A stretch of 64,000 nt of DNA from Candidatus Marinacidobacterales bacterium (GCA_965237955.1 OZ250169.1:6016001-6080000), one strand, 5' to 3'; shown: positions 1,892-10,043, numbered from the stretch's first letter. Notes: generated by a model not told the origin, from the sequence alone. Numbers and translations are program-made.

Positions 1892-3610
1892 GGTTCTCCT
1901 GTCGTTTCGGGGGATCTGATTTGTGTTGGAGGGCATGGCCTATGGACGGTGCCGCGATTGTGGAAAACGCCGGAAACTCCGGGCGAGAGAGGCGTTTAGG
2001 GAAAGGTTGTGAGCACGTACAAACGTGGAGCGGCGTTTTCCACAATCGCTTGGAAAACGCTTCGCGTTTCCCACGAGCGCCCACAGGCCCCTCCTGATAT
2101 ATATACAAGAAAGATTAATTCATATGGAATAAGGAAGGGGGGGCTCGATTAGTGGAGGCTATGGAAAACGCCCTTCCAGGCTTCGAAGAGAACTCAGCCG
2201 TGAGCAAGGTCTGAACGACCAGAACCGTGGGGGCGTTTCCCACAGCCTCGTCTCCCGCTGAGGGGCAGTGGCATTTGGTGAGGCCCGTGGGTTGAGAGGG
2301 TAAGCCATGTGTAGATGCGCATCGGCGAGAACGCTAGAATCTTTTTTTCCGAAAGAGAAAAGAGCGTTCCCGCGATGCGCGTTACTACGTTAGTCAACAA
2401 GCTCATCGGATTGCAAGGCCTGTGGGTCCGAGGTTTCCACTTCCAGGCGGACAAAGCCAGAGTGGTGGTGGATGTAGTACCACGGAGGAGGAAGCCTCTG
2501 TGCGGGATTTGCGGACGAAAGGTCCGCAAGAACAAAGATCGCTACAATCGCTACTGGCGGCACTTGGACCTGTTCGGAGTCCGGACCTATCTTCGCTACT
2601 CGATCCGACGAGTGGTATGTCGGCGGTGTGGAGTGGTCAGAGAAAAGGTGCCTTGGGCCGACAAGGGAAGCCGCTTTACCAAAAGCTTCGAACAAGAGGT
2701 AGCGTGGCTGGCACAGAGGACGGACGTCAGCGCCGTAGCGAACTATTTCCGAGTGACGTGGCGTTCGGTGCGACGGATCATCCAGCGAGTGGTTGCCGAG
2801 CAGCGGGATGAGCGGCGCGAGCTCGATGGATTGCGGGTGATTGGGATGGACGAGATCAGCTACCGCAAACGCCACAAGTACTTAACAGTGGTAATAGACC
2901 ATCTCAGCGGCCGGGTCGTCTGGGCGGGAAAGGAGCGCAAGGCCAAGACGCTGCTGCGGTTTTTCCGCAAGCTCGGACCACAAAGAGCCGCGGAGCTCGA
3001 AGCGGTCAGCATGGACATGTGGGAGCCGTACATAACTGTCGTCGGCAAAAAGGCTCCTCAGGCACGGGTGATCTTTGACCGCTTCCACATCGTCAAGCAT
3101 CTGAACGAGGCCGTGGATAAGACCCGGCGCGAGCTGGTGCGCGAGCTCAAAGGGACTGCCCGGCGCAACCTCAAGAACACCAAGTTTCCCCTTCTCAAGG
3201 CCAAACACAACCGCAGCGCGAAAGACAAACGGGTGCTCCGCGAGCAGGTGCGAGCTAATCGTCGCCTCTACCGCGCCATGCTTCTGCGCGACGACTTCAT
3301 GGACCTCTACACCTACAAAACCGAGACATGGGCCAAGAAGTTTCTCCGAGGATGGCTGCGGCGCGCTATGAGCTCGAGGATAGAGCCCGTCAAACGCGCG
3401 GCGAAGATGATCCGCAGCCACTTCGATGGCGTCATCGCGTGGGTCACGTGGAGACTCAGCAACGGCCGACTCGAAGGAATGAACAACAAAATCCGGCTGC
3501 TGAGCCACCGCAGCTTTGGACTCCACTCTGCCGAAGCTCTCATCAGTCTCGTCTACCTAAACTGTGGCGGTCTCACCCTCGAGAGGATCCACTGAAATGG
3601 CAGGAGAGGC
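1892..3610 (+). mobile_element. ISL3-family insertion sequence, copy 1 (1719 bp, intact)
   Basis: Imperfect terminal IRs GGTTCTCCTGTCGTTTC / GAAATGGCAGGAGAGGC; perfect 8-bp TSD AAAATTAA at 1884-1891 and 3611-3618; encodes an ISL3 transposase. Confidence 0.95.
2375..3595 (+). CDS. ISL3-family transposase
   Basis: Zinc finger CxxC..CxxC; IGMDEISYRKRHKYLTVV, VSMDMWEPY, IFDRFHIV, SNGRLEGMNNKI motifs; alternative start at 2315. Confidence 0.95.
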   Translation: MRVTTLVNKLIGLQGLWVRGFHFQADKARVVVDVVPRRRKPLCGICGRKVRKNKDRYNRYWRHLDLFGVRTYLRYSIRRVVCRRCGVVREKVPWADKGSRFTKSFEQEVAWLAQRTDVSAVANYFRVTWRSVRRIIQRVVAEQRDERRELDGLRVIGMDEISYRKRHKYLTVVIDHLSGRVVWAGKERKAKTLLRFFRKLGPQRAAELEAVSMDMWEPYITVVGKKAPQARVIFDRFHIVKHLNEAVDKTRRELVRELKGTARRNLKNTKFPLLKAKHNRSAKDKRVLREQVRANRRLYRAMLLRDDFMDLYTYKTETWAKKFLRGWLRRAMSSRIEPVKRAAKMIRSHFDGVIAWVTWRLSNGRLEGMNNKIRLLSHRSFGLHSAEALISLVYLNCGGLTLERIH

Positions 3611-3634
3611 AAAATTAAAAAGACCCCACTACCG

Positions 3635-3848: not shown

Positions 3849-4531
3849 GTGAACTTGCGCGCGGCCATGGTTACCACGGCACTGCTCGAGGACTTGGTCG
3901 AGCGGGGCTTGAATCCCGAGCGGCCGCGTCTGTTCGTGATCGACGGTTCGCAGGCGTTGCGCCGGGCCATCGATGCGGTGTTCGGCTCTCGGAACAAAGT
4001 GCAGCGATGTAGAAAGCACAAGGAGAGGAATGTTCTCGGCTACCTCCCCGAGGAGCTGAAGCCGCAGGTGCAGTCGACCCTACGCTCGGCGTGGCAGTTA
4101 CCCCCGGCCAAAGGGAAAGCGCGCCTCGAGAAGCTGGCCAAGTGGTTCGAGGACGAGTACCCGTCGGCCGCGGCAAGCGTGCGCGAAGGTCTCGACGAGA
4201 TGTTCACCATCAACGAACTCGGGCAGCCTGCAACCCTGCGGCGTTGTCTCGGTTCTACGAACATCATCGAGTCCGGCTTCAGCGGTACCAGGGGTCGAAC
4301 TCGACGAGTGACCAACTGGAAAGATGGTTCCATGGTTCTGCGATGGGCCGCCTCCGCCTTGCTCGCAACCGAGAAGAACTTCCGGCGCGTCCTGGGTTTC
4401 GAGTCGCTGCCCATCTTAGAAGCCAAGCTCAAGGAGCTCGCCCTAGGCAAAGACATTGTTCGTGAGGAGAAGGTCAGCTAGAATAACGATGACTGGAGCC
4501 GCCAACCTTCAACTGCCTCCGGGGCATCTCC
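3849..4531 (+). pseudogene. IS256-family element, 5'-truncated (transposase C-terminal half plus right IR)
   Basis: LFVIDGSQAL..VQRCRKHKERNV..STNIIES motifs; end TTCAACTGCCTCCGGGGCATCTCC resembles the IR of the IS256 at 6689. Confidence 0.85.
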
Positions 4532-5307: not shown

Positions 5308-5547
5308 GCACTCGCTTGCGTCGCTCACTAGCGTAGGCAAACGCTCTTCGCTTGTCCAGTACCGCCATATGCCCCTCCCCGCAATGCGTGCGATGGCGCA
5401 CACTTGCTTCCGACCATCACGTGGTACTACTATGCGCTCGCTACGGTTTCTCTGGCGCTGAAACCGCTCTCGCGTCCGTCCCCGCGCCTGCGGGCAATGC
5501 GTTCCTATCTCTTTCTTGGGACGAACGCTCTTCTTGGAGAAAAGCAT

Positions 5548-6087
5548 ATGCGGAATAACAGAGGTTTCACCTTAATCGAGCTACTCATCGTCGTCGCCAT
5601 CATCGGCATCATCGCCGCGATCGCGATTCCGAGTCTTCTCCGCGCCCGGGTCTCCGCCAACGAGGCTCAAGCGATCGGTGATACCCGTTCGGTGATTTCC
5701 GCTGAGCAGACGTACGCGTCCGCCAACGGTGGAATGTTCTCGAACTTGGTCAACCTCTGCCGGAACGGCGGCAACTGCGCCGGCATCGGCATCCCGAACT
5801 ATCCGACCGCCGCTCCGGAGTTCTGCGGTGGCGACCTCGGCCGCACTTCGCCTTACACGAAGTCCGGCTACTCGCGCCAGTGGACTGCGGGTCAGGCTCC
5901 GACCAGCGTGTCGACGAACTTGGATCCGGCCAGCGTGCTCGACTACTGCTACGACTCCTCGCCGGCCAGCCTTGGTCTGACGGGTGCGCGTTCGTTCTCG
6001 GGCTCGGCTACCGGTGCGCTCTACGTGGATCCGTCGGGTGCACAGGTCGCTTGCCCCATCCCTGCTGCGACCGCGTTTCTAGAGTAG
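5548..6087 (+). CDS. type IV pilin-like protein (prepilin N-terminal cleavage/methylation domain)
   Basis: MRNNRG/FTLIELLIVVAIIGIIAAIAIPSLLRARVSANE; GGAG RBS; Cys-containing C-terminal domain. Confidence 0.9.
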   Translation: MRNNRGFTLIELLIVVAIIGIIAAIAIPSLLRARVSANEAQAIGDTRSVISAEQTYASANGGMFSNLVNLCRNGGNCAGIGIPNYPTAAPEFCGGDLGRTSPYTKSGYSRQWTAGQAPTSVSTNLDPASVLDYCYDSSPASLGLTGARSFSGSATGALYVDPSGAQVACPIPAATAFLE

Positions 6088-6688: not shown

Positions 6689-8145
6689 GGAGATGTCCCG
6701 GCCGCTGTTGAATTTGGTCGGGTAGCGGCGGCACCTGTGAATACTCTTAGGCAGCAACCTCATCGCTGTCAAGAGATTTCTGTTTGCTTCTAAGCGCGTG
6801 AACGAGAGCGCCCATATGGCGATAGCCTTTGATACGGTGAAACTTTTTCTCCGCCGTGACGACGCCGAGAGCGGTCCATCGGCGAATCATGGAAGGACTC
6901 TTCCACCGCTTGACGTTTCTCGAGACTCTGCGGATGGTGCCGTTGAGATTCTCGATGGCGTTTGTCGTGGCCAGAGATTTGCGAAGTAACTCGGGTAGAG
7001 CGAGCTTCACAACCGTGAGGGTCTCTTCCATCCCTTCGCGAAGGCTTCCGGCAGCTTCGTCGTAGCCGTTTCGCTCGAGCCACGACACCAATGCCTGAAG
7101 TCGCTTGCGCGCCTTGTCGGCACTCTTGCATTTGTACGCTTCCTTCATTGTCTGGAGCACGTAGGCGTGACGGGACTTGGGAAGGTACGAGCGTAGATTT
7201 CGTAGTTTGTGGAGCTGGCATCTTTGGATAACCGCGAGATCCCCAAAAACGTCGACGAGTTCTTTGCGGATCCCTTTGCCTCCGTCCACTACGCAGAGAA
7301 TCGATTCGTCGATCCGCAATCCCCGCTCGAGAAGGTTCTGCAACATCGCGGTGCACACCGAGTTTTCCGTCGAGCCCAGCCATATACCCAAGGGCACCTT
7401 CGTTCCATCTATTGTGATACCGAGAGTTACGACGACGGTCTGTCCGGCCACCTCAAGGCCATCCAGCATCAGTGCCGCAAGCTCGAACTCCTCTAGCCGC
7501 CGAGACAGGTATTCCTCGAGCTTCTTAGTCGTCTGGCTCACGAGGTGACGGCTGGCGGCACTCTTGCTCGTGCCACGAGACTTCAACTTCGCCGAGGGTT
7601 TTGTCCAGACTCGATTCGTAATTTCGGGTCGATACCCCCACCAAGATCTGGTTCAGCACTCGCTCCGGAAGCGGGTCTTCTTCGCGGAAGGCTTCGAAGT
7701 GTGGAAGCGACGCCTCCTCGCCCGACTTCGAACGAACTCGAGGTCGCGACACTTGGATTCGACGACCGCCGAAGCTCAGCTCCCCATCCGTGCTCCCCCA
7801 GTGGTTATGAGTTCGCTCCTTCTCGTGCTTGCCCTTCGGCCCCGCGATCTTCTCCGCGTCCTCTCTCAGGAGTAGGTGCAATGCGGTCAGTCCTTGCTCG
7901 TACACCCATTCCGTCAGGTCCGCCTTCGTGGCCGCGATCCCAGCTATCATCGGTAGCAGTATCTGACCGACTTGGCCAACTACCTTGCCCGTAGGCGAGT
8001 GCGTTTGCTTTCTTACTGGCTTCTTTAATTTCCTTGGCATGGTGGCTCCTTGTCCCCTCTGGAGACGGTTGGTTTGGCAGACCTATTCTTAGGTCGGCCA
8101 AGGAGCCGCCGCTACCCCAAATTCAACATCCGGCGGGACATCCCC
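6689..8145 (-). mobile_element. IS256-family insertion sequence (1457 bp)
   Basis: Long imperfect IRs (GGAGATGTCCCGGCCGCTGTTGAATTTGG / CCAAATTCAACATCCGGCGGGACATCCCC); perfect 8-bp TSD AGCCAGAC at 6681-6688 and 8146-8153. Confidence 0.93.
6747..8040 (-). pseudogene. IS256-family transposase, frameshifted near 7590
   Basis: ORFs 7525-8040 (RPRVRS, GVSTRNY) and 6747-7586 (LMLDG, VVDGGKG, QRCQLHK, TTNAIENLN) are in different frames. Confidence 0.88.
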
Positions 8146-8324: not shown

Positions 8325-10043
8325 GGTTCTCCTGTCGTTTCGGGGGATCTGATTTGTGTTGGAGGGCATGGCCTATGGACGCTGCCGCGATTGTGGAAAA
8401 CGCCGGAAACTCCGGGCGAGAGAGGCGTTTAGGGAAAGGTTGTGAGCACGTACAAACGTGGAGCGGCGTTTTCCACAATCGCTTGGAAAACGCTTCGCGT
8501 TTCCCACGAGCGCCCACAGGCCCCTCCTGATATATATACAAGAAAGATTAATTCATATGGAATAAGGAAGGGGGGGCTCGATTAGTGGAGGCTATGGAAA
8601 ACGCCCTTCCAGGCTTCGAAGAGAACTCAGTCGTGAGCAAGGTCTGAACGACCAGAACCGTGGGGGCGTTTCCCACAGCCTCGTCTCCCGCTGAGGGGCA
8701 GTGGCATTTGGTGAGGCCCGTGGATTGAGAGGGTAAGCCATGTGTAGATGCGCATCGGCGAGAACGCTAGAATCTTTTTTTCCGAAAGAGAAAAGAGCGT
8801 TCCCGCGATGCGCGTTACTACGTTAGTCAACAAGCTCATCGGATTGCAAGGCCTGTGGGTCCGAGGTTTCCACTTCCAGGCGGACAAAGCCAGAGTGGTG
8901 GTGGATGTAGTACCACGGAGGAGGAAGCCTCTGTGCGGGATTTGCGGACGAAAGGTCCGCAAGAACAAAGATCGCTACAATCGCTACTGGCGGCACTTGG
9001 ACCTGTTCGGAGTCCGGACCTATCTTCGCTACTCGATCCGACGAGTGGTATGTCGGCGGTGTGGAGTGGTCAGAGAAAAGGTGCCTTGGGCAGACAAGGG
9101 AAGCCGCTTTACCAAAAGCTTCGAACAAGAGGTAGCGTGGCTGGCACAGAGGACGGACGTCAGCGCCGTAGCGAACTATTTCCGAGTGACGTGGCGTTCG
9201 GTGCGACGGATCATCCAGCGAGTGGTTGCCGAGCAGCGGGATGAGCGGCGCGAGCTCGATGGATTGCGGGTGATTGGGATGGACGAGATCAGCTACCGCA
9301 AACGCCACAAGTACTTAACAGTGGTAATAGACCATCTCAGCGGCCGGGTCGTCTGAGCGGGAAAGGAGCGCAAGGCCAAGACGCTGCTGCGGTTTTTCCG
9401 CAAGCTCGGACTACAAAGAGCCGCGGAGCTCGAAGCGGTCAGCATGGACATGTGGGAGCCGTACATAACTGTCGTCGGCAAAAAGGCTCCTCAGGCACGG
9501 GTGATCTTTGACCGCTTCCACATCGTCAAGCATCTGAACGAGGCCGTGGATAAGACCCGGCGCGAGCTGGTGCGCGAGCTCAAAGGGACTGCCCGGCGCA
9601 ACCTCAAGAACACCAAGTTTCCCCTTCTCAAGGCCAAACACAACCGCAGCGCGAAAGACAAACGGGTGCTCCGCGAGCAGGTGCGAGCTAATCGTCGCCT
9701 CTACCGCGCCATGCTTCTGCGCGACGACTTCATGGACCTCTACACCTACAAAACCGAGACATGGGCCAAGAAGTTTCTCCGAGGATGGCTGCGGCGCGCT
9801 ATGAGCTCGAGGATAGAGCCCGTCAAACGCGCGGCGAAGATGATCCGCAGCCACTTCGATGGCGTCATCGCGTGGGTCACGTGGAGACTCAGCAACGGCC
9901 GACTCGAAGGAATGAACAACAAAATCCGGCTGCTGAGCCACCGCAGCTTTGGACTCCACTCTGCCGAAGCTCTCATCAGTCTCGTCTACCTAAACTGTGG
10001 CGGTCTCACCCTCGAGAGGATCCACTGAAATGGCAGGAGAGGC
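8325..10043 (+). mobile_element. ISL3-family insertion sequence, copy 2 (1719 bp)
   Basis: Near-identical to 1892-3610 (only a handful of substitutions seen); flanks GAAAATAG/CAAAATAG (7/8 TSD). Confidence 0.95.
8808..10028 (+). pseudogene. ISL3 transposase with premature stop
   Basis: TGG(Trp) to TGA at 9354-9356 relative to copy 1. Confidence 0.92.

Follow-up and report, generated by a model that had tools for sequence, protein, structure and literature searches.

The ISL3 element and its copies

Positions 1892 to 3610 of the window, as the whole 64,000-nucleotide stretch of DNA analysed here is called, hold an insertion sequence (IS) of the ISL3 family. The element ends in 17-bp terminal inverted repeats (IRs) that match at 13 of their 17 positions, and it is flanked by an 8-bp target duplication, AAAATTAA, at 1884-1891 and 3611-3618. 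Terminal IRs that begin with GG and AT-rich target duplications of about 8 bp are shared with the ISL3 family at large, as are the zinc ribbon, HTH and DDE_Tnp_ISL3 domains, all of which are found in the encoded transposase (E 8e-71). The likely start codon of this protein is the ATG at 2375, its homologues starting with MRVTT, MRLTT or MRITA. Unlike several ISL3 relatives, the element has a leader of 483 nt between the left IR (from 1892) and this ATG, close to the 480 nt or so originally predicted, and this leader contains a structured module. The features are the following:

1884-1891, no strand: left target-site duplication, AAAATTAA, repeated at 3611-3618
1892-1908, plus strand: left terminal IR of the ISL3 element, 13/17 against the right IR, its boundary identical in 53 copies
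1937-1951, minus strand: 3' arm of P1 (outer stem), a degenerate box, with a private mismatch at G1949
1954-2049, minus strand: P3, the arm whose length varies in the family (7-97 nt); here a perfect 19-bp stem (1954-1972/2031-2049) that contains TTTTCCACA and encloses a variable loop of 58 nt
2051-2073, minus strand: P2 hairpin, with a C-GAA-G loop on this strand; its 5' arm, 2075-2067, is the second degenerate box
2074-2089, minus strand: 5' arm of P1, which includes part of the GC spacer (2090-2086) and the first degenerate box (2085-2077), four mismatches away from the consensus
2091-2099, minus strand: three trinucleotides resembling DnaA-trios, TAT CAG GAG, at distances of 5 nt (first box) and 15 nt (second box)
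2100-2135, no strand: AT-rich sequence with TATATA, preceding the trios when the minus strand is read 5' to 3'
2155-2249, minus strand: second, simple long hairpin (2155-2173/2231-2249), with box-like arms at 2244-2236 and 2168-2160
2317-2380, plus strand: third hairpin, separate from the module; it folds better as sense-strand RNA, and the ATG at 2375 and the ribosome-binding region are paired in it
2375-3595, plus strand: ISL3 transposase, 406 aa, with Zn_ribbon_ISL3, HTH_Tnp_ISL3 and DDE_Tnp_ISL3
3594-3610, minus strand: right terminal IR of the ISL3 element
8325-10043, plus strand: copy 2 of the element, with the leader module intact at 8370-8682 and a stop in the transposase at 9354-9356

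The host genome contains 53 full-length copies at 97.8-100% identity, most of them flanked by 8-bp AT-rich duplications, which indicates that the element spread recently with its leader already in place. Judging by its 8-bp target duplication and these copies, the window ISL3 is an active element. Near-identical elements are present in genomes titled Ca. Marinacidobacterales, and a contig search for the element returned 80 loci, nearly all of them near-identical copies from one genome; the IR, the module and the second hairpin are retained in 60 of these 80, and most of the others lack the left end. Viral contigs yielded one distant ISL3. Relative to the replichores the 53 copies are oriented 31:22, a ratio that tells nothing here, since the skew minimum disagrees with dnaA.

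With regard to copy 2, its leader had been described as the same as that of copy 1 and indeed differs from it by only three substitutions; the stop at 9354-9356 truncates its transposase prematurely, and its target duplication matches at 7/8 positions. In another genome copy (G000:C1:4905930-4907558) the whole P3 arm has been deleted between two short direct repeats, with the 8-bp target duplication intact. An 89-nt RNA-library contig (run X15) joins 2372 to 3176 at a weak depth of 3.7 and possibly represents a derivative with an internal deletion and the leader retained. The region is dense in ISs, with two IS256-family elements (3849-4481 and 6690-8145) flanking a tRNA and a pilin-like gene (5404-6087) between the ISL3 copies. 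The host priA gene lies at the right edge of the window (G000:C1:6079539-6079832).

Stems and strand-biased folding of the leader

A base-pair check recovered every stem that had been proposed for the leader. The perfect stem has Watson-Crick (WC) pairs at 19/19 positions; the outer stem (1937-1948/2078-2089) has 10 WC pairs and 2 A.C mismatches, the small hairpin (2052-2060/2064-2072, loop TTC on the plus strand) 8 and 1, and the second 19-bp stem 17 and 2. The mismatches were said to be A.C on the plus strand, and this applies to all five, which are therefore G.T on the minus strand. In L186 (95% protein identity) and L327 (a variant in the host genome), substitutions in the 5' arm of the perfect stem are T to C on the plus strand and give G.T on the minus strand. 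The DnaA-box-like sequence reported within the perfect stem is present as well, TTTTCCACA being found at 2036-2044 on the plus strand and at 1967-1959 on the minus strand.

The further claim that the strand antisense to the transposase folds best stands for z-scores and for each module taken singly, and fails for the raw RNA energy of the whole leader. Folding is better than chance on both strands and more so on the minus strand, with RNA z-scores (1892-2377) of -6.95 for the minus and -4.39 for the plus strand and DNA z-scores (1930-2260) of -5.77 and -4.56; equally good shuffles numbered 0/100 in each case. Each of the leader's two modules, folded alone, has the lower minimum free energy (MFE) on the minus strand, whereas the raw RNA MFE of the whole leader is not lower there (-183.7 vs -198.4 on the plus strand). 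In a longer minus-strand fragment the outer stem is displaced in the MFE structure by pairing with a C-run in the spacer, so that the support for this stem in the window element is comparative. G1949, which breaks one outer-stem pair, is private to window copy 1, the base being C in 52 of the 53 copies. The third hairpin (2317-2380) is retained on the sense strand of L186 and L327 and resembles the IS device that silences read-through transcripts.

A portable module with a three-way junction

Part of the leader, 1937-2107, is a portable module with a three-way junction. It is shared with a remnant of an unrelated, IS3-like element in the host genome, which carries the same hairpin block on its sense strand and whose family was inferred from a TGT end and a weak HTH_Tnp_1 match (E 0.0017). 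Matches to the hairpin pattern in the host genome all lie in ISs, 59 of 60 in the window ISL3 and one in this remnant. A degenerate search pattern for the small hairpin, GTGGRAAWC-N5-12-GWTTTCCAAG, is present in 42 of 401 genomes of the phylum, and the reversed pattern used as a control in none. Metagenomes contain it in at least 122 stretches, 80 of which were taken for study. Altogether 130 loci were examined, and the removal of L118, where the match proved to be a CRISPR repeat, and of five duplicates left 124 distinct loci, 75 of which derive from a pattern that fixed the GNA loop and among which related loci are not independent. On viral contigs, a loose pattern gave 17 matches, one of them (L292) a clear module. 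Plasmid searches with the leader returned short matches only; with a typical module, Acidobacteriota plasmids were matched, one of them at an annotated ISNCY transposase. The Acidovorax MOBF plasmid L302 has two tandem long hairpins with box-like stems (2370-2530 and 2650-2810) near a coupling-protein gene, related to the module in sequence and arranged differently.

On the wobble strand, the module consists of P1 (about 12 bp), P2 (GTGG..CCA), one A, P3 (7-97 nt), G-K and P1'; in the window, P1 is formed by 1937-1951/2074-2089, P2 by 2051-2073 and P3 by the perfect 19-bp stem. The original prediction had proposed looking for covariation and strand bias in homologous leaders, and both are present: the stems covary, and G.T pairs far outnumber A.C. 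The pairing of P1, which was not in the search pattern, was scored neutrally from the junction in the 91 of 123 modules that could be parsed, giving 841 WC, 94 G.T, 11 A.C and 55 other pairs, with three or four pair types in every column. For the outer P3 pairs the corresponding counts are 554, 42, 5 and 73, and RNAalifold, run on 51 sequences, found changes on both sides in 15 of 23 pairs. In a search that left the middle of P2 free, this part occurs in A/T-rich and G/C-rich versions, nearly all of them paired. The letters of the junction are the most invariant, the base of P2 (GTGG..CCAAG) being its most conserved part, and the middles of the stems covary freely. In several of the free-middle matches G/C pairs replace the A/T run, and the P2 box is lost with the junction retained, which suggests that the junction may be what is read.

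Insertion sequences that carry the module

The feature is real and conserved, and it is not specific to ISL3. A transposase or Rep gene adjoins the module in 81 of the 124 distinct loci (29/49 from genomes and 52/75 from metagenomes); the ORFs scanned at the other 43 gave no transposase match, and where a module is flanked by two transposases one was assigned by position. The neighbouring genes belong to rve-only (25), IS3 (18), IS21 (17), IS110 (11), ISL3 (5), RepA_C (2), IS256 (1), DDE_Tnp_1 (1) and DDE_5 (1) families, with none of IS630 and an IS4/5-type total of 2. IS4/IS5-type (DDE_Tnp_1) and IS630 (DDE_3) transposases are as common in the phylum sample as IS21/rve_3 and yet almost absent beside the module (in 101 genomes, DDE_Tnp_1 57, DDE_3 38, IstB 26 and rve_3 62), a comparison that is approximate, since genomes are the unit of the background and relatives are not independent. 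The families favoured by the module (ISL3, IS21, IS481-like and IS110) presumably move through circles. At the 81 loci, the module lies 3' of the gene and antisense to it in 62 cases, 3' and sense in nine, 5' and sense in five, and 5' and antisense in five. Four IS110-family elements (L126, L171, L178 and L212) share a module subtype with its own P1 sequence, right after the transposase stop.

Within the ISL3 family, the absence of the leader from close homologues had been named as the mark of a passenger repeat. The leader is retained at 82-100% identity, and many ISL3s at 33-41% identity lack the module, which makes it optional. At 33-42% identity it is carried, in either orientation, by L082, L084, L099 and L310. 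L086, L087, L089, L090, L095 and L326 have short leaders without it, L312 has a long leader without it, and L083 and L311 have a different multi-hairpin insert; several ISL3 relatives have leaders of about 110-130 nt, or another insert. L313, whose right IR is interrupted by the module, was not counted among the ISL3 examples. In the leaders of L083, L098 and L311 (40-41% identity) the insert is branched, with three short hairpins and GNA loops on the antisense strand, and is possibly an alternative single-strand signal in the same slot. Two active, multicopy IS21s of the host genome (about 18 and about 44 copies) are without the module. The host IS21 with istB (G000:C1 5449453-5450151, about 44 copies) has a structured, non-coding stretch, unlike the module, in its last 330 nt near the right end.

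This patchy occurrence, at either end and in either orientation, would suit a REP- or MITE-like passenger that is retained as harmless or as a terminator, and so would the copy that lacks P3 beside an intact target duplication. Such a passenger is nevertheless very unlikely, given that every hairpin match in the host genome lies in an IS, that the module has no IRs or target duplications of its own and is tied to some IS families only, and that an unpaired, asymmetric flank of triplets has been retained along with the fold; the conserved layout also argues against a mere passenger repeat.

An origin-like 5' flank

The original prediction had missed the 5' flank of the module, in which trinucleotide runs with the consensus T[A/C]G are followed by a GC spacer and by degenerate DnaA boxes in tandem. 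The order on the minus strand of the window is TATATA, TAT CAG GAG (2099-2091), GGGCC, a box (2085-2077) and a second box (2075-2067). In the basal unwinding system (BUS) of oriC, DnaA-trios follow the consensus 3'-GAT-5', and a GC spacer of about 4 bp separates them from two tandem boxes, the better of which is no more than 16 nt away (PMC8287927, accessible part). The central A of a trio is replaceable by C and not by G or T, G is the preferred partner, and a structure has been solved on duplex boxes with a single-stranded trio tail (PMC10721633, accessible part). The window has three NAN trinucleotides 15 nt from the second box, and GGGCC (2090-2086) corresponds to the spacer, family columns -14 to -10 being G/C-rich. 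Its boxes have 3 and 4 mismatches against BUS limits of 2 for the better and 4 for the other, so that the better box is one over, and the module lies inside an IS with 53 copies rather than at a chromosome origin.

Across the family, at least three in-frame NHG triplets stand just 5' of P1, on the wobble strand only, in 88 of 120 modules, compared with 6 farther upstream, 10/85 downstream and 13.6 in shuffled sequence, in a test framed after the repeats had been seen. In 69/120 modules (2.5 when shuffled) the P2 box has three N[A/C]G no more than 16 nt away, and the strict (NAN)3 rule is satisfied by 28/120 (10.9 when shuffled); 5' of the second long hairpin (2155-2249) there is no strict trio run. 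When the runs are defined by the third G alone, the centre is C in 163 triplets, A in 118, T in 69 and G in 38, in a background rich in G, and T predominates at the first position. With regard to the boxes, the P2 box departs from TTATCCACA at two positions in 52 of 120 modules, at three in 55 and at four in 13, figures partly fixed by the search pattern. The P1 3' arm has the consensus NTTTCCACA in 66/91 modules, long P3 arms repeat its core in 48/63, and a perfect TTWTNCACA occurs in 14/83 and is never of the TTAT form. DnaA is encoded by the host, which has a BUS candidate of its own in the dnaA-dnaN gap near 2.352 Mb, with the same layout of TATATA, NAN run, 5-nt spacer and box, and with relaxed TCCACAG sites.

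The module is like the BUS in strand and order, with an AT-rich stretch, at least three 3'-G(A/C)T-5' trinucleotides, a GC spacer of 4-5 nt, a weak box and a better box within 16 nt (PMC8287927 and PMC10721633, accessible parts). It differs in residing in insertion sequences, in its more degenerate boxes, in the excess of C-centred over A-centred triplets and in the embedding of the boxes in a conserved fold-back three-way junction, which the accessible parts of the same two papers do not describe for the BUS.

The trios and boxes would be expected equally if DnaA bound the module for regulation, coupling transposition to the cell cycle, opening the element end or blocking incoming transcription, with no priming involved. 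A DnaA site lies in the end of IS50 and counts for this reading; a literature search for that site found nothing relevant. The position of the module near one element end, in 62 of 81 loci 3' of the last gene and antisense, fits as well, and the BUS works on duplex DNA (PMC10721633, accessible part). Duplex binding, however, would leave the fold on one strand, the 94 G.T against 11 A.C pairs and the GNA loops unexplained, and regulation without priming seems unlikely.

Single-stranded DNA or RNA

The bias towards G.T fits DNA and, as G.U, RNA alike, and it is the types of loop that point to single-stranded DNA and not to RNA. Loops of the form C-GNA-G are specially stable in DNA. They occur in 21 of 48 P2 loops that were not fixed by the pattern, against 1 of the reverse form, and in 25 of 82 P3 arms, against 3, with all four bases at N; among the P3 loops listed there are 23 GNA triloops, and C-UUCG-G loops number only 2. 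The converse argument, from UUCG loops to RNA, is made in PMC2864571 (accessible part).

Rfam found only tRNAs in the window at the gathering cut-off, three chance matches far below the cut-off in 1800-2450 at E<=10, and no family besides an unrelated group II intron piece at 15 module loci. The suggested resemblance of the small hairpin to Acido-Lenti-1 was not upheld, the leader giving no match to it at E<=10. As an identity for the module, Acido-Lenti-1 (RF01687) was rejected: the best score in the host genome, among the 150 of 1768 candidates scored, was 23.9 bits, lay elsewhere and compares with a cut-off of 37, and the published seed alignment is of a different motif (PMC2864571, accessible part). 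The two have in common that they are small structured repeats in Acidobacteria; Acido-Lenti-1 has another sequence and consists of two tandem hairpins of 46 nt (PMC2864571, accessible part).

The antisense non-coding RNA (ncRNA) that was offered as one role for the leader is not supported either. Antisense RNAs of the RNA-OUT type overlap the start of the transposase gene, have a fixed antisense orientation and are made from their own promoter. The leader structures end at least 126 nt upstream of the ATG at 2375, so the start is not overlapped; all four geometries of gene and module occur in the family, so the orientation is not fixed; a search for a module transcript's sigma-70 promoter consensus gave no match; and the loops are of the DNA type. 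In contigs from two RNA runs of the same study the leader has depths of 24.5 and 22.7, compared with about 3-13 in the long contigs of the coding region; it is barely covered in a third RNA run, and coverage is flat in one run whose type is not recorded. These contigs are unstranded, give neither ends nor level and include junctions between element and flank, and they were weighed neither way. A structured ncRNA made from the wobble strand, whether an antisense regulator or an RNA bound by the transposase, would account for the pairing bias through G.U and for the RNA z-score of -6.95, and the TATATA 5' of the module could be its -10 box. The Rfam and promoter results, the GNA triloops in place of C-UUCG-G and the unfixed orientation all speak against it, and the presence of the module beside unrelated transposase folds argues against a transposase-specific RNA, so that a role as RNA appears highly improbable.

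Relation to known single-strand signals

The A site of the ABC primosome is a hairpin of single-stranded DNA (ssDNA) that contains a DnaA box (PMC6127211, accessible part). The analogy with plasmid R6K drawn in the original prediction holds well for the window element: the only TTWTNCACA within a hairpin of R6K adjoins pir and has the same 9-mer, TTTTCCACA, as P3 in a similar stem, and P3 likewise has its DnaA box in the stem. We infer that this hairpin beside pir is the A site, the box being called 'R1' in the accessible part of PMC6127211. Unlike the branched module, the R6K hairpin is a simple stem that has neither a junction nor a clear run of triplets; a perfect box is absent from most members of the module family.

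A second likeness is with phiX174. Its F-G gap, which we take to be the PriA primosome assembly site (PAS), has a branched ssDNA fold in which a stem ending GG..CC is followed by AA and the mini-hairpin GCGAAGC, directly after CCAA, as in the smallest modules. Its predicted fold has no outer stem equivalent to P1, and it has neither trios nor box-like stems. This likeness at the CCAA-GCGAAGC joint raises the alternative that the module is a single-strand initiation signal read through its junction by the PriA restart primosome or by primase, with the box-like stems incidental. The invariance of the junction letters beside covarying stem middles, the host's own PriA and the related hairpins beside RepA_C genes and near the coupling-protein gene of a MOBF plasmid all agree with such a signal. 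It would not explain why the triplet runs have the preference for A or C at the centre that is known for DnaA, and together with the missing P1 equivalent in phiX174 this makes recognition by PriA or primase quite unlikely.

DNA resembling an sso has been described between the transposase and the IR in Mycoplasma ICEs (PMC3942029, accessible part). A literature search found no description of such a module in insertion sequences. The terms DnaA, 'insertion sequence' and ISL3 are absent from the accessible main text of the preprint 10.64898/2026.10.21.760802; the motif may be present in its cluster browser or supplements.

A candidate DnaA loading site in copy-out transposition

Copy-out transposition needs host replication of the figure-eight intermediate (PMC7780238, accessible part), which gives the module a plausible job. 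The fold, its strand bias and covariation, the layout and the spread across IS families are directly established. Starting from these, our preferred reading, which we hold to be about as probable as not, is that the module may be a DnaA loading site that helps to replicate copy-out intermediates. The single-strand DnaA priming signal of the original prediction would thereby remain the best reading of the leader, extended by the trios, the GC spacer and the tandem boxes, by loops of the DNA type and by its occurrence in several IS families; not all such elements need the signal. The module would most likely work like an ABC-primosome A site fused to the BUS of oriC, corresponding in full to neither.

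The DnaA loading site could act as follows. Once the transposase had joined the element ends on one strand, or a single strand had been displaced, the strand with the G.T wobbles would fold. P1 and P2 would stack and present two co-oriented duplex boxes, with the trios as a 5' single-stranded tail, so that the folded module would resemble the tailed scaffold used for the oligomerisation of B. subtilis DnaA; P3 and the second hairpin would add stronger boxes. Binding of DnaA-ATP would then bring in helicase and primase, as happens in the ABC primosome, and the strand would be converted into the double-stranded circle for pasting in. The module would be an optional booster, swappable with other structured inserts, and not a core requirement.

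A broader proposal, which we put forward tentatively and consider somewhat less probable than not, is that copy-out ISs bring with them a replication signal that acts in cis. This would be an oriC unwinding system in miniature, folded into one strand, with duplex DnaA boxes and the trios as its 5' tail; it would be passed as a cassette between plasmids and elements of the IS3, IS21, IS481-like, IS110 and ISL3 kinds, could be exchanged for other single-strand signals, and would supply the link that is missing in the loading of the host replisome on the figure-eight or the single-strand circle. Most bacterial IS families are described as using copy-out/paste-in, and the accessible part of PMC7780238 leaves unexplained how the replisome is loaded there. 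A discrete, mutable module of about 170 nt with predicted contacts (the A or C at the trio centre, the boxes and the junction) makes this step testable. If the reading is true, DnaA-trios would be at work outside chromosome origins, in a natural single-strand version of the BUS, and a DnaA-binding module present in 53 copies on the chromosome could, in addition, titrate the initiator of its host.
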